Shown here one piece after another: positions 1 to 33,464 of a stretch of 64,000 bases of DNA. Location of the stretch: assembly GCF_041886205.1 (NCBI RefSeq), contig NZ_CP169029.1; one strand, written 5' to 3'. Under the pieces are notes generated by a model, which was not told where the DNA came from, searched no databases, and saw only the letters and a program-made list of their open reading frames with translations. The translations under genes were made by a program, and so were the position numbers. The first letter of the stretch is position 1; the number at the start of each line of letters is the position of its first letter. The stretch is from Escherichia coli (lineage in GTDB: Bacteria > Pseudomonadota > Gammaproteobacteria > Enterobacterales > Enterobacteriaceae).

Positions 1-3000
1 CTCTTCAGCCAGCATACCCTTCACCGAACAGACGACCGTACCCAGATCAACACCGGTTTGGGCTGGCGTCATTTCACCCCCAGCTGGATGTCAGGCATCA
101 ACCTGTTTTTTGACCACGACCTGAGCCGCTATCACTCCCGCGCGGGGCTTGGCGCAGAATACTGGCGTGATTATCTCAAGTTAAGCAGCAACGCTTATAT
201 CGGCCTGACCGGCTGGCGTAGCGCACCAGAATTGGATAATGACTTCGAAGCCCGCCCGGCCAACGGTTGGGATTTACGCGCGGAAGGCTGGTTACCTGCC
301 TGGCCACAACTGGGTGGAAAACTGGTCTATGAACAATACTACGGCGATGAAGTGGCGCTGTTTGACAAGAATGATCGCCAAAGTAATCCCCATGCTATTA
401 CCGCGGGCCTCAACTATACCCCCTTCCCGCTTCTGACTCTCAGTGCGGAACAGCGTCAGGGGAAACAAGGTGAAAATGACACACGTTTTGCCGTTGATCT
501 GACCTGGCAACCCAGCAGTTCAATGCAGAAACAGCTTAACCCGGACGAAGTGGCCGGACGGCGCAGTCTGGTCGGTAGTCGTTATGACCTGATTGATCGC
601 AACAACAACATCGTTCTGGAATACCGCAAGAAAGAGCTGATTCGCCTGAGTCTGCTGGATCCGGTGAAAGGGAAGTCTGGAGAAATAAAACCGCTGGTTT
701 CCTCGCTACAGACCAAATATGCCCTGAAAGGCTATAACATCGAAGCCGCTGCGCTGGAAGCTGCCGGAGGTAAAGTCAGCACTTCTGGAAAAGATATCAC
801 GGTCACGCTGCCAGGTTACCGCTTCACTAACACCCCAGAAACCGATAATACATGGTCGATAGACGTTACCGCCGAGGATGTAAAAGGTAACCTGTCACAT
901 CATGAACAAAGCATGGTAGTCATTCAGGCTCCGACATTAAGCCAGAAAGATTCTCTGTTATCCGTTAATCCGCTAACCGTGGCTGCAGATAAAAAATCGA
1001 CGACCACATTGACCGTTACTGCACACGATTCCGACGGAACCCCGGTGCCGGGGCTTGCGCTGCAAACCCGCAGTGAAGGCGTTCAGGACATCACCCTGTC
1101 TGACTGGACAGATAACGGTGATGGTAGTTACACACAGATGCTGACCGCCGGAACGACATCAGGTTCAGTAACACTGACGCCGCAAATTAACGGTGAGAGT
1201 GCGGTAAAAGAATCTATCGTCGTTAATATCGTCCCTGTTGTCTCATCCCGCGACCATTCATCAATAACAATTGATAACGTATCGTATTATGCCGGAGACG
1301 ACATCAAGGTTAGGGTGGAGCTGAAAGACGATAGCAATCAACCGGTTGCATATCAAAAAGAGGAATTGGTAAAAGCCGTTACTGTCGAAAACAGCAAACC
1401 TGGAGCCACGATTGTCTGGCACGAAGAGCTGCCGGGGGTTTATACCGCGAATTATCCGGCCCATAAGCAAGGGACAGCACTAAGGGCACAACTTAGCCTT
1501 CACAACTGGAATGCTCCACTGCAATCGCATATTTATAACATTGAGGCAAACCAGAATAAGGCTCGCGTCGCCACATTATCAGCGACGAATAATGACGTTT
1601 ACGCTGATAAAAAGACATTTAATACCCTCACTATCAACGTCACTGATGAGAGTGATAATCCCCTGACAAATCATCAGGTCACCTTTAAGAATGAAAAAGG
1701 AAGCGCGGAATTTGTCGAACCGCCGCAGCAAAATACGGATGCATATGGTGTTGCCACAATCAACATGGTAAGTCAGGTTGCGGAAGAAAATACGATTAGC
1801 GCCACGCTGCCAAATGGTTTCTCACAACGGATAATTGCGAAATTTGTTAGCGATTCGAGTACGCCAAAATTCAAACAACTGGTTGCCGATCCAGATACCA
1901 TTATTGCTGGCAACAGCCAGGGCAGCACTCTGACCGCCACCGTCACAGACTTTCATAACAACCCATTAAAAGATATGAAAGTGAATTTTGTGGCACCTGG
2001 TGGCTCGCAACTGGACAACACGACCGCCACAACAGACCAGTACGGTATTGTGCGGGTGCATCTGACCAGTTCAAAAGCTGGTAGCTATTCCGTAGATGCC
2101 TCGCTTGAGGCGGATAAAAATATTCACCAGTCGGTCACGATCACCGTGGTCCCAAACAGGGAACAATCGGTAATGACCTTGAATGCCGGGTCGGGCAGTG
2201 CGGTCGCTAACAATACAAATACCGTTACCCTGACTGCCAGTGTGAAAGATGTTTATGGACACCCATTGCCGGATGAGGATGTGAAATTTACCTTGCCAGC
2301 CTCCATGACCGGGAACTTCACGCTAAGTAGTGAAACCGCCCGCACCGATGCAAACGGCGATGCCATGGTCACATTGCGAGGCACAAAAGCGGGTGAGTTT
2401 ACAGTTACGGCGACGCTGACAAGAAATAATACCATTGCTCATCAGCAAGTTTCTTTTATTGGGGATACAAACAGTGCGCAGCTCCAGCCGCTGACTGCCT
2501 CATTAAATACCATTGTTGCGGGTAACAGTACGGGGAGTACCCTGACGGCAACGATCCTGGACGCTTACCAAAATCCGCTTAAAGACCAGCTGGTCACTTT
2601 CCAGAGTAACGATGTCACTCTAAGCGGAACAGAAGTCACCACCAATACGCTGGGTCAGGCGACGGTAACAATGACCAGCAATATTGCCGGACAACATAAC
2701 GTCGTGGTGAGCCGGAAAGCACAAGCCTCCGATAATAAAACGTTTAGTTTATCAGTGCTCCCGGATGAAAGTTCGGCGAAGGTAATAAGTATAACCGGAG
2801 CCGAAAAAACGATAACGGTTGGCGAAAACATCACGCTACGGATACTCGTCCAGGACGCGTTTAACAATGTAATAGCGGGTCAACGTGTCAGATTAAGTGC
2901 GCAGCCAACAGCTCACATTACGATAGGCGATACGGCTTACACCGATAATAACGGTTATGCGTACGTTCACCTTATTAGCACCCAGTCTGGGGTTTATCAG

Positions 3001-6689: not shown

Positions 6690-7862
6690 ATGATTGATTA
6701 TACCGCAGCCGGTTTTACCCTGCTGCAGGGAGCGCATTTGTATGCGCCGGAAGATCGGGGAATTTGCGATGTCCTCGTCGCTAACGGCAAAATTATCGCC
6801 GTTGCCAGCAATATCCCTTCTGACATTGTACCGGACTGCACGGTTGTCGATCTCAGCGGGCAGATCCTCTGTCCTGGTTTTATTGATCAACACGTCCATT
6901 TGATTGGTGGTGGCGGTGAAGCAGGTCCCACGACGCGCACGCCAGAAGTGGCGCTAAGTCGCCTGACGGAAGCGGGCGTCACGTCAGTGGTTGGTCTGCT
7001 GGGCACCGACTCTATCTCTCGCCACCCGGAATCCCTGCTCGCCAAGACCCGTGCGCTCAATGAAGAAGGCATCAGCGCCTGGATGCTGACCGGCGCTTAT
7101 CATGTCCCTTCCCGCACCATTACAGGTTCCGTGGAAAAAGACGTGGCGATTATCGATCGTGTGATTGGCGTGAAATGCGCCATCTCTGATCACCGTTCTG
7201 CCGCACCGGACGTTTATCACCTGGCTAATATGGCGGCGGAATCCCGCGTTGGCGGTTTGCTCGGCGGTAAACCTGGCGTCACCGTGTTCCACATGGGCGA
7301 CAGCAAAAAGGCGTTACAGCCTGTCTATGACCTGCTGGAAAACTGCGATGTGCCGATCAGCAAGTTGCTGCCGACCCACGTTAACCGCAACGTTCCGTTG
7401 TTTGAGCAGGCGCTGGAGTTCGCGCGCAAAGGCGGCACTATCGATATCACCAGCAGCATTGACGAACCGGTCGCCCCTGCCGAAGGTATTGCGCGCGCCG
7501 TTCAGGCGGGTATTCCGCTGGCACGCGTCACCCTCAGCTCCGACGGCAACGGTAGCCAGCCGTTCTTCGATGACGAAGGGAATTTAACCCATATCGGTGT
7601 TGCCGGTTTTGAAACGTTGCTGGAAACCGTGCAGGTGCTGGTCAAAGACTATGATTTCAGTATCAGCGATGCCCTGCGCCCGCTCACCAGTAGCGTAGCC
7701 GGTTTCCTTAACCTGACCGGGAAAGGCGAAATTCTGCCAGGCAATGATGCTGACTTGCTGGTCATGACGCCAGAACTGCGCATTGAGCAGGTATACGCTC
7801 GCGGCAAACTGATGGTCAAAGACGGCAAAGCCTGCGTGAAAGGAACGTTTGAAACGGCTTAA
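6690..7862 (+). CDS. iadA: Isoaspartyl dipeptidase (amidohydrolase superfamily)
   Basis: 390 aa; metal-binding HxH motif near N-terminus (FIDQHVHLIGGGGE); RBS aggag upstream; K-12 synteny. Confidence 0.85.
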   Translation: MIDYTAAGFTLLQGAHLYAPEDRGICDVLVANGKIIAVASNIPSDIVPDCTVVDLSGQILCPGFIDQHVHLIGGGGEAGPTTRTPEVALSRLTEAGVTSVVGLLGTDSISRHPESLLAKTRALNEEGISAWMLTGAYHVPSRTITGSVEKDVAIIDRVIGVKCAISDHRSAAPDVYHLANMAAESRVGGLLGGKPGVTVFHMGDSKKALQPVYDLLENCDVPISKLLPTHVNRNVPLFEQALEFARKGGTIDITSSIDEPVAPAEGIARAVQAGIPLARVTLSSDGNGSQPFFDDEGNLTHIGVAGFETLLETVQVLVKDYDFSISDALRPLTSSVAGFLNLTGKGEILPGNDADLLVMTPELRIEQVYARGKLMVKDGKACVKGTFETA

Positions 7863-7926: not shown

Positions 7927-8763
7927 ATGGATGACTGTGGTGCGATTTTGCATAATATTGAAACCAAATGGCTTTATGATTTTCTGACCCTGGAAAAATG
8001 CCGCAATTTTTCCCAGGCGGCAGTCAGTCGCAACGTCTCGCAACCGGCATTCAGCCGCCGCATCCGTGCGCTGGAACAGGCGATTGGTGTTGAATTGTTT
8101 AACCGCCAGGTAACGCCGCTGCAACTCTCAGAACAAGGGAAAATCTTCCATTCGCAGATCCGCCATCTGTTGCAACAGTTAGAGAGCAATCTGGCAGAGC
8201 TGCGTGGCGGCAGCGATTACGCGCAACGAAAAATCAAGATAGCCGCTGCACACTCTCTTTCCCTCGGGCTGTTACCGTCCATTATCAGCCAGATGCCGCC
8301 GCTCTTTACCTGGGCAATTGAAGCTATTGATGTCGATGAAGCGGTCGATAAACTGCGTGAAGGGCAAAGTGACTGTATTTTTTCCTTTCACGACGAAGAT
8401 TTGCTGGAAGCGCCGTTTGACCACATTCGCTTATTTGAATCTCAATTGTTCCCTGTCTGCGCCAGTGACGAACACGGAGAAGCACTTTTTAACCTCGCGC
8501 AGCCACACTTTCCGTTACTGAATTACAGCCGCAACTCCTACATGGGGCGATTGATTAATCGCACCCTGACGCGCCACAGTGAGTTAAGTTTCAGCACCTT
8601 TTTTGTCTCTTCGATGAGCGAGCTTTTAAAGCAGGTTGCCCTCGACGGCTGTGGGATTGCCTGGCTGCCGGAGTACGCCATCCAACAAGAAATTCGCAGC
8701 GGGAAGCTCGTTGTACTGAATCGGGACGAACTGGTGATCCCGATTCTGGCCTATGCATACTGA
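7927..8763 (+). CDS. hypT: LysR-family regulator HypT (YjiE), apparently truncated by an in-frame TGA; 24 further sense codons continue to a second stop at 8836-8838
   Basis: N-terminal HTH typical of LysR regulators; ORF ends ...ILAYAY then TGA, followed in frame by [24 protein letters not shown] and a stop. Confidence 0.75.
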   Translation: MDDCGAILHNIETKWLYDFLTLEKCRNFSQAAVSRNVSQPAFSRRIRALEQAIGVELFNRQVTPLQLSEQGKIFHSQIRHLLQQLESNLAELRGGSDYAQRKIKIAAAHSLSLGLLPSIISQMPPLFTWAIEAIDVDEAVDKLREGQSDCIFSFHDEDLLEAPFDHIRLFESQLFPVCASDEHGEALFNLAQPHFPLLNYSRNSYMGRLINRTLTRHSELSFSTFFVSSMSELLKQVALDGCGIAWLPEYAIQQEIRSGKLVVLNRDELVIPILAYAY

Positions 8764-8830
8764 ATGAATACCCGCATGAATCCAGTTGCCGAACGCTTCT
8801 GGCGTGAACTGCGCGAGCTGGAGATTGTAC

Positions 8831-9223
8831 TTAGCTGACATTCTCCAGCGTCGCACTACGCCAACCGCCATTATCCCAGACCAGATCAAACGTTAGCGGT
8901 TCATCGTCGTGGTACAGCATTATCTCAAGGCTGATCGCCAGCGTGTGACTGTACGCTTCTTTCAGATTGACCTGCAACGCCGCAATCCGTGGCTCATGAA
9001 ATAACAGTGCAGAACGCAGCTGACGGCAATACCAGCTCTGGAGATGTTTGTCGCTCTGGTTATGCACTTGCCACTCGGGCATGCCTGAAACAAGTAATGA
9101 CGGTAATGCCGAAAGAGGAGAATTAAAAAGAGTGAGGAGATCGCTGCATACCGATTTACGCAGCAATGACGTTTTATTGCCTGAAATTTTAGGTAAAACA
9201 GCCTGAAGTGATTGGCGCATCAT
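8831..9223 (-). CDS. iraD: Anti-adapter protein IraD (YjiD)
   Basis: About 130-aa ORF convergent with hypT; sequence [11 protein letters not shown]... as recalled for IraD; K-12 synteny. Confidence 0.75.
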
Positions 9224-9894
9224 TTTGCGCACTCCTGACGTTTAGCAACATATGCGGCTTGCCCTGAACACCGGGCACCACTGTATTGATGCTCATTTTC
9301 CATAGCCATTCCCTTTTGTTCATTACATCCATGTCAGTCTGAGACAGGCCTGAATCCTGTCAGCAAAGTATAAAACCTTACTTGCCTATGAATATCTACT
9401 GACTTTTCAGGAAAAAAGTCATGATTTGATAAAAATCATCAAACTCAAAAAAAAACCGCTAGTATATTCTGAATATTCCGAATAGTTACGTAGATGAAAA
9501 TACTTGTCACCGCCGCTACTTAATTCCGGTTGGAAATTATTTATTTCCGCATAATCATCTATGTATTATTTGAAACAATTAGTTTGTAAATAATATAAAT
9601 TGATAACATATCAAATACATCAAAAATACCATTCACAGGCATTATTAATATAGACCTCAATATAGCAACATCAAATTCCAATTAGTAATAAGATATGCTT
9701 TTAAATTGCATGCAAATAATTTTAAATGAGCGTTTTTTGATACTTTAGAGTGTTTCCTACCATTTAATATCACTGTGTAGAGTTGATATCACTACAACAG
9801 AAACATGCATGTCATTTGTTTACTTCTCTTTTACTACAGAAAAATTTATCTATTTTTCTAAACATCAGTGAAATACTCATAAAAGGTAACTATT

Positions 9895-10725
9895 ATGTCT
9901 ATGCCATTAAGCAATGCCGCTAATAACCAATTCTATATAAATAATCACTTCCTTCATCATCCAAAAGTCGACAATGAGTTAACACGTAAATATGAACGTG
10001 CACGCCTGGATACGGAAAATATCTATCTTCTGCCTCTTACTCGTGGCAATAACCATAATTACGATGGAAAAAGCGTTGTCGAAATTAGAAAACTTGATAT
10101 TAGTAAAGAGTCCTGGCCATTTAATTATGTGACAGAAACATGCAGAGAATCCGATGGTATTACAACAACAGGTCGTATGCTCTATCGAAACTTGCGAATT
10201 ACCTCAGCTTTAGACGAAATATATGGTGGTATATGTAAAAAGGCGCATGCTGCCACAGAGTTAGCAGAAGGATTACGGCTAAATTTATTTATGAAGAGCC
10301 CTTTCGATCCTGTTGAGGACTATACAGTTCATGAAATAACATTAGGCCCTGGTTGCAATGTTCCTGGTTATGCCGGAACCACGATAGGATATATTTCAAC
10401 CCTTCCAGCTTCTCAGGCAAAAAGATGGACCAATGAGCAGCCAAGGATTGATATCTATATTGATCAGATAATGACGGTAACAGGGGTAGCAAATTCTTCC
10501 GGATTCGCCCTTGCCGTATTACTTAATGCTAATATTGAGTTGGGTAATGACCCAATAATTGGTATAGAAGCCTATCCCGGTACCGCGGAGATCCATGCAA
10601 AAATGGGATATAAAGTTATCCCGGGTGATGAAAATGCACCACTCAAACGTATGACTCTGCAACCGTCATCTCTTCCAGAACTGTTTGAATTAAAAAATGG
10701 TGAATGGAATTATATTGGTAAATAA
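9895..10725 (+). CDS. yjiC: Uncharacterized protein YjiC, low-GC gene
   Basis: 276-aa ORF with AT-rich codon usage, preceded by a 660-bp very AT-rich intergenic region; position matches K-12 yjiC. Confidence 0.7.
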   Translation: MSMPLSNAANNQFYINNHFLHHPKVDNELTRKYERARLDTENIYLLPLTRGNNHNYDGKSVVEIRKLDISKESWPFNYVTETCRESDGITTTGRMLYRNLRITSALDEIYGGICKKAHAATELAEGLRLNLFMKSPFDPVEDYTVHEITLGPGCNVPGYAGTTIGYISTLPASQAKRWTNEQPRIDIYIDQIMTVTGVANSSGFALAVLLNANIELGNDPIIGIEAYPGTAEIHAKMGYKVIPGDENAPLKRMTLQPSSLPELFELKNGEWNYIGK

Positions 10726-10865
10726 CTACCAGGAAGAATGAGTACTAACATTCAGGTTATACAGATAGCTAAACAATACCCTGCAATTTACAAAGTAATA
10801 CTCATTGCGACTTCTTAATTTAAGAAAGCGCAAGGAACGTTTACCCTTGCGCTTATTATAATAAG

Positions 10866-11639
10866 TCAGGCGTCGACTTTATCCAGCGGCCATGAATCAA
10901 ACAGATAGCCATCAAAATAAATATCGTCAACGTTCGAGAATTCCAGCAGACGTTGCTTAACGTTTTCCAGATGCTGCCACATTGCCAGCTTCGCCGCTCG
11001 GGCATCTTTTTTGATTAACGCGGCGAGGATCTGTTTGTGATCGCCCAACCACTCTTTGCGATACAGGCTGTCATCCAGATGGCTGTGCAACTGGATCCAC
11101 ATTGGATTGTTTTCCCGCCACTGCCAGGACTGACGGAACAGCTCCACCAGCATGCTGTTATGCGTTGCTTCGGCAATAGCGAGATGGAACTGCATGTCAC
11201 CGCTTTCGCTGCTGCCCGGCGCACTGGAAGCCAGTTCACGCTCTTCCAGTTGCAATGCCTGACGCATTTTGACGATATCTTCGCGGGTAGCCTGCAGGGC
11301 GGCAAACTCGGCGATGTTGCTCTCAAGAAGCTGTCGCGCCTGCAACAGCTCAAAAGGACCCGCATCATTGCAAACGTTGGCATCCGGACTGTCTGTGTTG
11401 TGGCTGCCTGAGCTATCAAGAACATAGATACCGGCACCCCGGCGCACTTCCACCAGCCCTTTGATCTCCAGCATGATCAGCGCTTCACGTACCACCGTCC
11501 GCGTGACATCAAGCATTTCTGCAATTTCACGCTCCGGCGGCAGCCGTTCGCCAGGATTGTACGGCGTCTTTATGATCAGATCGCGGATCATCGCCCCGAC
11601 TTCCTGGTAAGGTCTTTGCGCAGAGGTGGCAGATTTCAT
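10866..11639 (-). CDS. uxuR: GntR/FadR-family transcriptional repressor UxuR
   Basis: 257 aa; N-terminal GntR-type HTH (RLPPEREIAEMLDVTRTVVREAL); adjacent to uxuAB. Confidence 0.9.
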   Translation of the reverse strand: MKSATSAQRPYQEVGAMIRDLIIKTPYNPGERLPPEREIAEMLDVTRTVVREALIMLEIKGLVEVRRGAGIYVLDSSGSHNTDSPDANVCNDAGPFELLQARQLLESNIAEFAALQATREDIVKMRQALQLEERELASSAPGSSESGDMQFHLAIAEATHNSMLVELFRQSWQWRENNPMWIQLHSHLDDSLYRKEWLGDHKQILAALIKKDARAAKLAMWQHLENVKQRLLEFSNVDDIYFDGYLFDSWPLDKVDA

Positions 11640-11852: not shown

Positions 11853-13313
11853 TTACAGCGCAGCCACACACTCGCGCGCACCGCGTTCGCACAGCTGCTG
11901 ATATGCCGCCGTCACCGCGCCAACAAAGTCCGCATTTTGCGGCAGATCATCGGCAAAAATACCGCTCAGGCCCAGCAACGCTTTCACGCGGTCTGCGCCC
12001 TGATTCTGCGCGTTGATCTTCTGGAACTCCGCCAGCATCGGGTCAACTACGTCAATGGCATTACCCTGCTCATCCACGCCCTGGGTGTAGCGCATCCAGC
12101 CAGCCACGCCCAGCGCCAGGTGACGCCAGCTGCCGCCGTTTTGCAGGTGCAGACGCACCGGATCCAGCAGACGCTGCGGTAACTTCTGGCTGCCGTCCAT
12201 CGCAATCTGCCAGGTACGGTGACGCAGAGACGGGTTGCTGAAACGCTCGATCAGCAGCGTCGCATAGGCGTTCAGGTCCGTACCTTCCGGCATCGACAGC
12301 GTTGGCGCTTGTTCCTGCATCATCAGGGCAAAGGCCGCTTTGCGATAATCCGGGTTAGTCATGGTGTCGGCAATAGTTTCATAGCCGCCGAGGTAACCGA
12401 GGTATGCCAGGAAAGAGTGGCTGCCGTTCAGCATACGCAGCTTCATCATTTCGAACGGCACAACGTCTGCAACGAACTGTGCGCCCACTTTATCCCAGTC
12501 CGGGCGACCATTAACGAAGTTATCTTCAATCACCCACTGACGGAACGGTTCGCAGGCAATGGCGCACGGGTCGTAAACACCCAGCTGGTCAGCAATTTCC
12601 TGTAAGGTTTCTGGCGTCGCCGCCGGAACGATGCGGTCAACCATGGTGCACGGGAAGGTGACGTTCTCTTCAATCCATGCCGCCAGCTGCGGATCGCGTG
12701 CCTGAGCCAGCCCAAGAACGGCAACCTTCGCCACATGACCGTTTTCTCGCACGTTGTCGCAGGACATCACCGTAAACGCTTTCAACCTTTTTTCACGACG
12801 CAGGCGCAACGCTTCTACGATGTAACCAATCGCGGACTTCGGCGCAGTCGGGTTTTCCAGATCGTGCTTGATCAGCGGGTTATTGAGATCCAGTTGACCG
12901 CTTGCCGCATCAGCGCAGTAGCCTTTTTCCGTGACCGTTAGAGAGACAATCGCCGTTTGCGGACGCGCCATCGCGTTGAGAATACCTTCGCAGCCATCGA
13001 TTTCCGGATGCAGCGCTTCTTTCATTGAACCGATAATTTTCAGCTCGGTGCTTTCTGCGCCTTTTTCCGCCACGGTGTACAGCAGTTGCTGTTTTTTCAG
13101 GTTTTCGATCAGCACGCGGTCGTTGCCTGGCATCAGGTTAACTTCGCAGATACCCCAGTCGCTGTCGGTGCTTTCCAGCAGGTGATGGGTATACAGCGCC
13201 TGGTGCGCGCGGTGAAACGCCCCGCAACCGAGATGCACAATGCGTGATTCCAGACGAGAATGATCCCATGACGGGCGGGCAACCGGCAGATTGCTGTCAA
13301 CAATAGTAGTCAT
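11853..13313 (-). CDS. uxuB: D-mannonate oxidoreductase (fructuronate reductase)
   Basis: 486 aa, mannitol-dehydrogenase-family protein with N-terminal Rossmann motif (VHLGCGAFHRAH); uxuAB operon context. Confidence 0.9.
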   Translation of the reverse strand: MTTIVDSNLPVARPSWDHSRLESRIVHLGCGAFHRAHQALYTHHLLESTDSDWGICEVNLMPGNDRVLIENLKKQQLLYTVAEKGAESTELKIIGSMKEALHPEIDGCEGILNAMARPQTAIVSLTVTEKGYCADAASGQLDLNNPLIKHDLENPTAPKSAIGYIVEALRLRREKRLKAFTVMSCDNVRENGHVAKVAVLGLAQARDPQLAAWIEENVTFPCTMVDRIVPAATPETLQEIADQLGVYDPCAIACEPFRQWVIEDNFVNGRPDWDKVGAQFVADVVPFEMMKLRMLNGSHSFLAYLGYLGGYETIADTMTNPDYRKAAFALMMQEQAPTLSMPEGTDLNAYATLLIERFSNPSLRHRTWQIAMDGSQKLPQRLLDPVRLHLQNGGSWRHLALGVAGWMRYTQGVDEQGNAIDVVDPMLAEFQKINAQNQGADRVKALLGLSGIFADDLPQNADFVGAVTAAYQQLCERGARECVAAL

Positions 13314-29943: not shown

Positions 29944-31140
29944 TTACAGAAATGGTAAAGAAGGCATAACTCCCCGTGAAATACTGGCTAATAAGCCTTT
30001 ATCTGGTTGTTCTTCTTTATTGATTAAAGGAAGGTCATCCAAATCGCCCAGCAAATACGTATTTTTTGCCTGCCAGTCAATCATCCATATTTTCAGCAGT
30101 GGATAAGCCAGACCGCCCGTAATCCCGGATATCACTACCAACGCACACATGCGATAAAGCATACCGTGGTAAGTTAAAGTTGAGCGAAAACGAATACGCC
30201 CATCATTCAGTGACAGGTTGCTCATAAAATGATTTCGCAACGACACCGTTAAATAACTGGTGCTAACAGCAATCCCAAAATAATAGATTAACTGCGCGAT
30301 TATCATTTTACGTTGCACTTCCATAAATTGCTGTAAATTCTCAATATCATCATTTGCATACACAGAACTATAATACTCATTTAATATTTGATCGAAGATA
30401 ATATAACCAGCAACAGCGAGAAAAGGTAATAAAGCTAAAAATGCGAGGATGGCATATTTTATACAATACGCAGTATCTAATTTCACCTTGAAACGATGTA
30501 TACCGAAACTGGTATTGCTCCAGAGAAAACTCATTACCAGGCTATATAAAGTACCATTAAAAATACCAATGGAAACAATACCAACTATTGCCATCAGAAC
30601 CACAGATATAATAACACTACTTGAACTATTGGCATGTAGCATCTTTGTCGAGATAAAGAAAACAGTCCCCATCCCAATGGCCATTAAAATCGGCAAGAAA
30701 AAGGTTACCCACCAGAACCCTTTCATAGAGCAATTAAAACTAAATCTTACGCCGTTGAGACTGGTCATCAAGGCCTGATAACGCAGTCCTTTTGCTGCCA
30801 TAAATATAAGCAAAACCAACAGTGACAAAGTCAAAACACAGCCAACAAGCGGCATATCTGCTGACACTGTCATTAAGATTGCGAAATAGAAAAAAACAAA
30901 AACAAGACAACTAACAAAAACATTCCCACCAGTAATTCCATAAGAAAATCGTTGTCCGTTAACTTCCATATTAGCATAGAGATAACGCTTACATTTCATT
31001 AATGCCCATGGTAAATAGATACCTAGCGTTATAATCGTCAACAACACATTCACCACACAAATAAGAAAATATCTCTCACCTGTACCATGAAAAACAAACG
31101 AATGGGACGGAACATCCATTTCATTAATAACTTGAGCCAT
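29944..31140 (-). CDS. yjgN: Inner membrane protein YjgN (DUF898 family), low-GC gene
   Basis: About 398-aa polytopic membrane ORF with AT-rich codon usage; position between valS and yjgM as in K-12. Confidence 0.75.
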   Translation of the reverse strand: MAQVINEMDVPSHSFVFHGTGERYFLICVVNVLLTIITLGIYLPWALMKCKRYLYANMEVNGQRFSYGITGGNVFVSCLVFVFFYFAILMTVSADMPLVGCVLTLSLLVLLIFMAAKGLRYQALMTSLNGVRFSFNCSMKGFWWVTFFLPILMAIGMGTVFFISTKMLHANSSSSVIISVVLMAIVGIVSIGIFNGTLYSLVMSFLWSNTSFGIHRFKVKLDTAYCIKYAILAFLALLPFLAVAGYIIFDQILNEYYSSVYANDDIENLQQFMEVQRKMIIAQLIYYFGIAVSTSYLTVSLRNHFMSNLSLNDGRIRFRSTLTYHGMLYRMCALVVISGITGGLAYPLLKIWMIDWQAKNTYLLGDLDDLPLINKEEQPDKGLLASISRGVMPSLPFL

Positions 31141-31332
31141 AAAAATTCCCTGAATTAAAAAATCCATTGATATAATTTATAGATACAGACAGTAAAATGT
31201 TCTGCCACGTTACAATACTCTTATCAGTAATAGGCTGGCAAAAACTTTATTACTTTATAAGTCGCTTGCGCACGTAAGAAGAGAGTGGTATTAAACATAT
31301 GTATAATTACTTTATTTTTATTGGGTTAAACT

Positions 31333-31836
31333 ATGAATAACATTGCGCCGCAATCATCTGTAATGCGTCGCCTGACGTTGCAGGATAATCCTGCTATCGC
31401 CCGCGTCATTCGTCAGGTATCCGCCGAATACGGTCTTACCGCTGATAAAGGCTACACCGTCGCCGATCCGAACCTTGACGAGTTGTATCAAGTGTATAGT
31501 CAGCCTGGCCATGCATATTGGGTGGTTGAGTTCGATGGTGAAGTGGTCGGCGGCGGTGGGATTGCGCCATTAGCAGGTAGTGAATCGGACATTTGCGAAC
31601 TGCAAAAGATGTATTTTCTTCCGGCTATTCGCGGTAAAGGGCTGGCGAAAAAACTGGCCTTAATGGCGATGGAGCAGGCACGAGAGATGGGCTTCAAACG
31701 CTGCTATCTGGAAACGACCGCTTTTTTAAAGGAAGCCATTGCGCTTTATGAGCATTTGGGCTTTGAGCATATCGACTATGCGCTTGGCTGCACGGGCCAT
31801 GTCGATTGTGAAGTGCGGATGCTACGCGAACTCTAA
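31333..31836 (+). CDS. yjgM: GNAT-family N-acetyltransferase YjgM
   Basis: 167 aa; acetyl-CoA binding motif region ([21 protein letters not shown]). Confidence 0.8.
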
Positions 31837-32459: not shown

Positions 32460-33464
32460 ATGTCCGGGTTTTATCATAAGCATTTCCTGAAATTACTCGA
32501 TTTCACGCCAGCTGAACTCAACAGCCTGTTGCAGTTAGCCGCGAAGCTGAAAGCCGATAAGAAAAGCGGTAAAGAAGAAGCCAAACTCACTGGTAAAAAC
32601 ATCGCGCTCATCTTCGAAAAAGACTCGACCCGTACCCGATGCTCTTTCGAAGTTGCCGCATATGACCAAGGTGCTCGCGTTACTTATCTCGGCCCAAGCG
32701 GCAGCCAGATTGGTCATAAAGAGTCGATTAAAGACACTGCCCGCGTGCTTGGTCGCATGTATGACGGTATTCAGTATCGCGGCTATGGTCAGGAGATTGT
32801 CGAAACACTGGCGGAATACGCTGGCGTGCCGGTATGGAACGGCCTGACCAATGAGTTTCACCCCACGCAGCTGCTGGCGGATCTTCTCACCATGCAGGAG
32901 CATTTACCCGGCAAAGCGTTCAACGAAATGACGCTGGTCTATGCAGGTGACGCACGTAACAACATGGGCAATTCGATGCTCGAAGCTGCGGCGCTTACCG
33001 GTCTGGATTTGCGTCTGGTCGCGCCACAGGCATGCTGGCCGGAAACTGCGCTGGTTACGGAATGCCGCGCTCTGGCACAGCAAAATGGCGGGAATATTAC
33101 GCTAACGGAAGATGTAGCCAAAGGAGTTGAAGGTGCTGACTTTATCTATACCGATGTGTGGGTGTCGATGGGGGAAGCAAAAGAGAAATGGGCAGAACGC
33201 ATTGCATTACTGCGTGATTATCAGGTGAACAGCAAGATGATGCAGTTGACCGGTAACCCGGAGGTCAAATTCCTCCACTGCCTGCCCGCGTTTCATGACG
33301 ACCAAACGACGCTTGGCAAGAAAATGGCGGAAGAGTTTGGCCTACATGGCGGAATGGAAGTGACTGATGAGGTCTTCGAATCTGCCGCCAGCATTGTATT
33401 TGATCAGGCGGAAAACCGCATGCATACCATCAAAGCGGTGATGGTCGCGACGCTCAGTAAATAA
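32460..33464 (+). CDS. argI: Ornithine carbamoyltransferase
   Basis: 334 aa; carbamoyl-phosphate motif STRTR and ornithine-binding HCLP motif. Confidence 0.9.

Follow-up and report, generated by a model that had tools for sequence, protein, structure and literature searches.

What is the long and strikingly AT-rich stretch that separates iraD from yjiC in Escherichia coli, and what acts on it? We addressed this question in a 64-kb window of the E. coli chromosome NZ_CP169029.1 (all positions given here are those of this whole window), where the open reading frames (ORFs) and the RefSeq annotation of strain MB06022 give the gene order iadA, hypT, iraD, spacer, yjiC, uxuR, uxuB; MB06022, the source of the annotation, is 100% identical across 8800-10900. 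A preceding sequence-only reading had described the spacer as a long non-coding stretch of xenogeneic DNA, silenced by H-NS, that could harbour divergent promoters or a small RNA (sRNA). We conclude with high confidence that the spacer is the known iraD-yjiC divergent control region of E. coli, bound by H-NS in K-12. The AT-rich stretch is in this sense ordinary and already known, and the control region has been well studied in K-12. Our analysis contributes sequence identity, the intactness of the mapped elements, base composition, promoter-site density and gene distribution to this conclusion, and the K-12 literature contributes the promoters, translational coupling, the roles of CsrA, DnaA and HusR, and H-NS occupancy and repression; that the whole scheme holds in the present strain, and that H-NS silences yjiC as well, we infer.

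Composition and boundaries of the spacer

The spacer (9224-9894, 671 bp, 31.7% G+C) lies between two divergently oriented genes. One is iraD (8831-9223, minus strand), which encodes the 130-aa anti-adaptor stabilising RpoS and is annotated by RefSeq in identical and near-identical strains, with matches to the NCBIfam equivalog NF010726 (E 3e-89) and to Pfam GPW_gp25 and TssE-like. The other is yjiC (9895-10725, plus strand), encoding a 276-aa protein of the DUF2686 / YjfZ-YjiC family. The sequence-only reading had let the intergenic region begin at 9233 and given it 660 bp; a large spacer is indeed present, but its start had to be moved, since the annotated iraD start is the ATG at 9223 and not the GTG at 9232, which brings the length to 671 bp. 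The K-12 counterpart of 672 bp has been called "unusually large for E. coli" (bioRxiv 10.1101/2021.05.20.444958).

The G+C content is 31.4% over 9233-9894, 29.3% over 9304-9894 and 27.1% over 9400-9894, compared with 50.7% for the window. Segments of 500 bp across the 64 kb have a mean G+C of 50.6% with a standard deviation (sd) of 5.6%, which puts the AT-rich stretch about 4 sd off. When segments of 591 bp are considered, those equally AT-rich make up 0.24% of all and every one of them lies inside the iraD-yjiC spacer, the lowest (27.7%) starting at 9360. Tracts of at least 4 A/T bases occur at 25 per kb in the AT-rich stretch against 10.5 per kb window-wide, and the frequency of TpA is 0.108 against 0.046, so that tracts and TpA are each about 2.4-fold up. 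The claim that 9300-9890 is extremely AT-rich with many A/T tracts is thereby borne out, its 29.3% being the lowest G+C in the 64 kb, and the same is true of the claim that yjiC is a low-GC gene: its G+C is 39.4% and its G+C at third codon positions (GC3) is 0.30, against 0.52-0.66 for iraD, hypT, iadA, uxuR and uxuB.

Alignment with K-12 MG1655 gives 99% identity over the spacer. Across the aligned 9200-9920 there are 8 differences, namely 7 substitutions and one 1-bp indel, with one of the substitutions falling inside iraD. None of them touches the mapped promoter, CsrA, idlP, DnaA or HusR elements, all of which stand at the same distance from the iraD ATG as in K-12, and the gene order is the same. 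Two of the substitutions alter the small ORFs ytiD and ytiC, as discussed below.

The iraD promoters and the translated leader

Two iraD promoters have been mapped experimentally in K-12, at -417 (P1) and -137 (P2) (bioRxiv 10.1101/2021.05.20.444958), and both can be placed on the minus strand here. P1 (9640-9674) consists of TTGATG at 9674-9669 and TATATT at 9652-9647, with 16-bp spacing, ahead of the published transcription start site (TSS) at about 9640; its bases are identical to K-12, the hexamer pair was recovered independently by a consensus promoter scan, and TATATT ends 7 nt before 9640. P2 (9360-9372) has its published TSS at 9360 and a -10 hexamer TATACT at 9372-9367, read from the sequence, which also ends 7 nt before the start; in alignments both E. 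albertii and a yjiC-less E. coli haplotype retain this block. Given the K-12 mapping, both are predicted to act as sigma-70-type promoters in the present strain. According to Sass and Lovett, DnaA-ATP represses, SspA activates and azidothymidine (AZT) induces both promoters (bioRxiv 10.1101/2021.05.20.444958). Their RNA-seq of K-12 has further shown that AZT induces ytiC 260-fold, ytiD 33-fold, idlP 18-fold, iraD 14-fold and yjiC 11-fold, all independently of LexA, with ytiC being the most AZT-induced gene (PMC11228462).

Transcription from P1 would yield a 417-nt leader that contains ytiC and ytiD, and idlP would lie within the transcripts of both P1 and P2. About 417 of the 671 bp, roughly two-thirds of the spacer, thus correspond to transcribed iraD leader bearing three small translated ORFs, and the description of the spacer as a long non-coding stretch has to be abandoned. 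Shuffled versions of the P1 leader RNA fold less stably than the leader itself (z = -4.1), as is expected of a structured leader with a hairpin that sequesters the Shine-Dalgarno (SD) sequence of iraD (PMC5574718).

The leader peptide gene idlP (ORF27; 9220-9303, minus strand, RefSeq annotation) ends in a TGA stop that overlaps the iraD ATG as ATGA. Park et al. reported that CsrA represses translation of idlP and, through translational coupling, that of iraD, with footprints in the K-12 leader at -112..-103, -90..-84 and -78/-77 (PMC5574718). When these footprints are mapped onto the present sequence, all four GGA motifs are found within 9299-9357 of the minus-strand leader, identical to K-12: BS1 at 9355-9357, BS2 at 9328-9330, BS3 at 9310-9313, lying over the idlP SD, and BS4 at 9299-9301, the three footprints corresponding in turn to BS2, BS3 and BS4. 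Translation of idlP would thus open the iraD ribosome-binding site and allow re-initiation at the overlapping ATGA, and CsrA bound to the GGA sites around the idlP SD would repress IraD synthesis. E. albertii and the alternative E. coli haplotype share with the window the 27 codons of idlP and its stop/start overlap; the middle of the peptide is variable. Because the frame and the ATGA overlap are kept while the mid-peptide varies, this pattern fits a role for the translation of idlP and not for the peptide itself. The arrangement resembles leaders in which an upstream ORF (uORF) is coupled to the following gene, in that a 27-codon frame whose stop overlaps the iraD start has been kept in three lineages; it differs from them in that control is exerted by CsrA at the SD of the uORF and not by ribosome stalling or attenuation.

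In published work further inputs converge on the same DNA, namely DnaA-ATP through the box at -81, SspA, ppGpp and HusR. The DnaA box termed 'Box -81', TTTTCCATA, is found in exact form at 9296-9304 on the plus strand, where it overlaps the idlP start codon (bioRxiv 10.1101/2021.05.20.444958). The site of HusR (YnfL) obtained by genomic systematic evolution of ligands by exponential enrichment (gSELEX), CAGAATATACTAGCGG, which is placed between ytiD and idlP in Table 1 of PMC12844172, has an exact match at 9456-9471 on the minus strand.

The other two small ORFs behave differently from idlP. ytiD (ORF47; 9419-9562, minus strand) is known from the K-12 annotation and is called 'hypothetical protein' by the NCBI Prokaryotic Genome Annotation Pipeline in MB06022; its start ATG has become ATA in this strain, and the ORF listing holds no frame started by ATG, GTG or TTG at ytiD. 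ytiC, which overlaps ORF23 of Park et al., is annotated at 9559-9642 on the minus strand and has 27 codons here, ending in a TAG that K-12 replaces by TGG, which gives the K-12 gene 33 codons. Two single-nucleotide differences from K-12, at 9559 and 9561 (CATGGCTG to CATAGATG on the coding strand), remove the ytiD ATG and shorten ytiC together. Both alleles segregate in E. coli, where database records annotate either 'ytiD' or 'hypothetical protein' twice. Since ytiC of E. albertii also stops at the same TAG, it may be K-12 that carries the derived form. The alternative haplotype lacks the ytiC/ytiD segment, and in E. albertii its conservation is poor. The loss of the ytiD ATG and the truncation of ytiC therefore indicate that the mechanism does not include these ORFs as conserved parts, in line with the report of Park et al. 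that ORF23 and ORF47 are expressed in K-12 without effect on iraD (PMC5574718). With the start and stop changes seen here and the poor conservation, we rejected ytiC and ytiD as conserved functional peptides.

The annotated ytiC ATG occupies 9642-9640, and its third base is the published P1 start (-417, position 9640). Either, then, the mapping of the start is in error by 2 nt and ytiC is translated from a leaderless mRNA, or P1 does not give rise to the annotated ytiC; for ORF23, Park et al. use an internal ATG near 9609. No NCBIfam model matches IdlP, YtiC or YjiC.

H-NS, the age of the locus and rival explanations

Promoter islands have been described in E. coli as AT-rich, H-NS-covered segments with very many potential start points that lie beside horizontally acquired genes (Panyukov & Ozoline 2013; PMC3661553). 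The K-12 counterpart of our spacer is one of the 78 listed, as island 4554354_526, yjiC(-)/iraD(+), of 526 bp; it is marked as H-NS-bound in the chromatin immunoprecipitation (ChIP) data sets of Kahramanoglou and of Oshima, and is flagged as associated with predicted foreign genes by several predictors of horizontal gene transfer (PMC3661553). After coordinate conversion it maps to roughly 9359-9884. As summarised in PMC6064147 and PMC4668568, Battesti et al. 2012 found that H-NS, with StpA, inhibits iraD expression and that of iraM. Promoter-like hexamer pairs are also denser in the spacer than anywhere else in the window (9-10 per 591 bp, where the mean is 2.1 and the sd 1.9), and -10-like hexamers number 25 per kb in it, compared with 5.3 per kb. 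With its extreme AT-richness the spacer would thus form a promoter island dense in promoter-like sites, which H-NS, with StpA, would occupy, keeping iraD low until stress and probably yjiC likewise. Such islands have been described as transcriptionally almost silent, whereas the iraD-yjiC one holds two productive, regulated promoters in addition to the lowest G+C and the highest promoter-like density of the window.

The distal spacer adjoining yjiC (9675-9894) presumably holds the yjiC promoter; on the plus strand it would drive yjiC, co-induced with iraD by replication stress. Aligned with E. albertii, it has a sole well conserved block at about 9723-9740 (TAAATGAGCGTTTTTTGA on the plus strand), and in the alternative E. 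coli haplotype it is missing together with yjiC. We found no published TSS of yjiC in the literature, where the term is swamped by an unrelated Bacillus glycosyltransferase of the same name. The earlier suggestion of divergent promoters is upheld by the K-12 work, with P1 and P2 mapped on the iraD side and the yjiC promoter presumably lying in the distal spacer.

Several points weigh against the H-NS-bound control region as we describe it. Promoter-like sites are not enriched over dinucleotide-preserving shuffles of the region (6 against 6.8), so that their high density is explained by AT-richness. The H-NS 10-mer TCGATAAATT, allowing up to 2 mismatches, is not enriched in the window (72 against 68 expected), and the spacer holds a single copy with 1 mismatch, at 9843-9852. 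In the literature consulted we found neither a yjiC promoter nor a direct effect of H-NS on yjiC documented, and the genes of the iraD-yjiC locus do not appear in the supplements of Srinivasan 2015. H-NS occupancy is known from K-12 and is probable in the present strain by near-identity of sequence. To these can be added the ytiD without its ATG and the shortened ytiC. Comparison with xenogeneic silencing by H-NS/StpA, as at iraM, bgl and proV, is accordingly two-sided: the locus shares with it AT-richness, the K-12 H-NS ChIP signal, the reported repression of iraD and an adjoining low-GC, lineage-restricted gene, but it is not a recent acquisition, given the synteny with E. albertii, and it has no conspicuous nucleation motif of the canonical high-affinity kind.

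How old, then, is this arrangement? Of 5,426 complete E. coli genomes, about 4,880 have the spacer and yjiC at >=95% identity (95-99% for the spacer). Some 490-510 genomes, including NC101, carry the alternative haplotype, and about 9% of E. coli lack yjiC. The alternative haplotype has an iraD of only about 81% nucleotide identity and a leader whose homology extends to about 9490; between hypT and iraD it carries a ptsP-like gene or pseudogene, and its iraD-uxuR spacer remains AT-rich, with G+C as low as 27%. E. albertii has a ptsP-like ORF, iraD, a 645-bp spacer at 28-30% G+C, and yjiC (63% amino acid identity), followed by uxuR. The three iraD lineages are about 20% apart and have in common the P2 region, the iraD SD and an idlP frame of 27 codons that overlaps iraD at ATGA. 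Parsimony would make the AT-rich spacer and yjiC older than the split of E. coli and E. albertii, and the yjiC-less haplotype a deletion, because the ptsP-like gene and yjiC occur together in E. albertii. Because the same layout is found in E. albertii, any acquisition must be old, and the reading as recent horizontal transfer was rejected.

The origin of the AT-richness is where a rival explanation carries most weight. The AT-richness could be no foreign mark at all: the spacer would be a native, old, lineage-specific regulatory platform with many inputs, and yjiC an orphan gene born or diverged within Escherichia. We regard this as possible, though on balance doubtful, and it concerns origin only, being compatible with H-NS binding. 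It accords with the E. albertii layout, which predates the split and has not drifted to genome-average G+C, with the yjiC-less haplotype looking like a deletion and not the ancestral state, and with the paralogue yjfZ elsewhere in the same genome; nor can a donor be named, as no homologue turned up outside Escherichia and Shigella among 5.8 billion clustered or 1.84 billion representative proteins. Against a native origin stand the GC3 of yjiC, far under that of its neighbours, the flags of several horizontal-transfer predictors on the K-12 region, the phage gp25/TssE type of IraD itself, and the stronger divergence of iraD and yjiC than of the flanking core genes (omega against E. albertii of 0.18 for iraD and 0.31 for yjiC, against 0.03 for uxuR and uxuB). 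The atypical GC3, the Escherichia-only family and the absence from about 9% of genomes would speak for a foreign origin, the E. albertii synteny and the missing donor against it. In the earlier claim of xenogeneic DNA silenced by H-NS, the H-NS part is upheld by the K-12 ChIP listing and the reported iraD repression, and the xenogeneic part comes down to composition, narrow range and the presence/absence polymorphism, so that the word can denote at most an old, lineage-restricted island with no identifiable donor.

Two further explanations would deny the spacer its role or add another to it. That the region is a decaying, functionless remnant of an old insertion, with its small ORFs and promoter-like sites as noise, could be argued from the lost ytiD ATG and truncated ytiC, from the IS1 insertions and IS1-linked deletion found here in other strains, and from an omega of about 0.8 for yjiC within E. 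coli; it is hardly tenable, being already contradicted by published reporter and mutational data, with P1, P2, idlP and the CsrA, DnaA and HusR sites experimentally supported, the spacer 95-99% conserved in the great majority of complete genomes, the idlP frame kept across three deep lineages, and yjiC intact with its omega of 0.31 against E. albertii. Very unlikely, if somewhat less so, is an independent sRNA gene in the spacer, separate from the iraD leader and the yjiC mRNA and having a promoter and a terminator of its own. AZT induction drops from ytiC (260-fold) to ytiD (33-fold), both upstream of P2, as if a short 5' RNA from P1 could accumulate; the leader is stably folded, as noted above, and there is a run of nine U at 9446-9454 on the minus strand. 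A simpler account of the induction gradient is that basal counts are close to zero and that constitutive transcription from P2 dilutes the fold-changes further downstream, and the transcribed part is fully explained by the mapped P1 and P2 leaders; the ytiC/ytiD region, moreover, is poorly conserved in E. albertii and missing from the alternative haplotype. An Rfam scan of 8500-11200 at E<=1 returned only two sub-threshold, chance matches to eukaryotic families, and a promoter/terminator scan of 8800-10900 with loops limited to 3-8 nt found no terminator-like site and no G+C-rich terminator hairpin in 9224-9894. The suggestion that the spacer harbours an sRNA therefore found no support, and the known H-NS-bound divergent control region remains the explanation that we prefer.

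YjiC and the surroundings of the control region

YjiC matches Pfam PF10887 (DUF2686) over its full length (residues 1-276, 498 bits against a cut-off of 25), and its paralogue YjfZ is 41% identical. In the two protein sets named above, all relatives of YjiC come from E. coli, Shigella and E. albertii; an exhaustive phmmer search of the 1.84 billion representatives yielded only fragments of close relatives, and a genome scan for relatives returned only E. albertii. The gene evolves fast, and within E. coli 27 of 40 differences in yjiC fall in the first 137 nt.

An AlphaFold2 model built on a 7-sequence alignment is of low confidence, with a predicted local distance difference test (pLDDT) score of 54 overall and 65-88 in the C-terminal half; it predicts a GNAT-like acyltransferase fold, which we treat as a lead and not as a result. 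A conserved N-x-x-G-F...A segment follows the central strand at the place of the CoA-binding motif A of the GNAT superfamily. The usual Q/R-x-x-G-x-G/A motif is not present, since N-x-x-G-F alone is conserved, the usual Q/R is lacking and the last position is A in YjiC and I in YjfZ. YjiC differs from the superfamily also by some 130 additional N-terminal residues, the first 46 or so of which are hypervariable, and in having no Pfam, NCBIfam or PDB sequence-profile match to acetyltransferases; a PDB profile search with the YjiC alignment gave chance matches only.

A bolder extension of these leads would join iraD and yjiC into one divergent replication-stress module, with the spacer as a shared, H-NS-nucleated switch and yjiC as an unrecognised, Escherichia-specific acyltransferase of GNAT fold acting in the LexA-independent response of IraD. 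We consider it improbable, a long shot at present. In a weaker variant of the same idea, the P1-proximal ytiC segment would act as a separate small protein or RNA.

The surroundings of the locus offer a few observations of their own. The flanking genes are iadA (6690-7862, plus strand) and hypT (starting at 7927, plus strand) on the iraD side, and uxuR (10866-11639, minus strand) and uxuB (11853-13313, minus strand) on the yjiC side. In hypT a premature TGA at 8761-8763 (plus strand), where the otherwise identical MB06022 has CGA and K-12 has CGG, removes the last 25 of the 303 residues of this hypochlorite-response regulator in the present genome. Between the convergent yjiC and uxuR, 12 nt past the uxuR stop, a perfect 10-bp inverted repeat (AAGCGCAAGG, 9 nt, CCTTGCGCTT; 10826-10854) is probably a bidirectional terminator; it escaped our scan, which was limited to loops of 3-8 nt, probably on account of its 9-nt loop. 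Short sense and antisense RNAs have been reported from promoters in the 3' end of uxuR (PMC10016265).

Elsewhere in the window, two low-GC blocks at 30117-31432 and 33343-35118 reach 500-bp minima of 32% and 29% G+C. They may be the fim switch/nanC region, which is only a guess from the gene order in related genomes, where uxuAB is followed by gntP and the fim genes; the fim switch/nanC spacers are likewise among the listed H-NS-bound promoter islands. IS1 copies lie in or beside the iraD-yjiC region in several strains, among them E. coli YZ22MPE6, and one strain has an IS1-bounded deletion of everything between yjiA and uxuR. Insertion of IS1 at such a place is typical of its targeting of AT-rich DNA.

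The region matters since IraD stabilises RpoS during DNA damage and starvation. A reading of the sequence alone had rightly flagged it as H-NS-bound and rich in promoters. What leads beyond the literature consulted is the predicted GNAT-like fold of the uncharacterised, AZT-induced YjiC, together with the deep allelic polymorphism of the locus.

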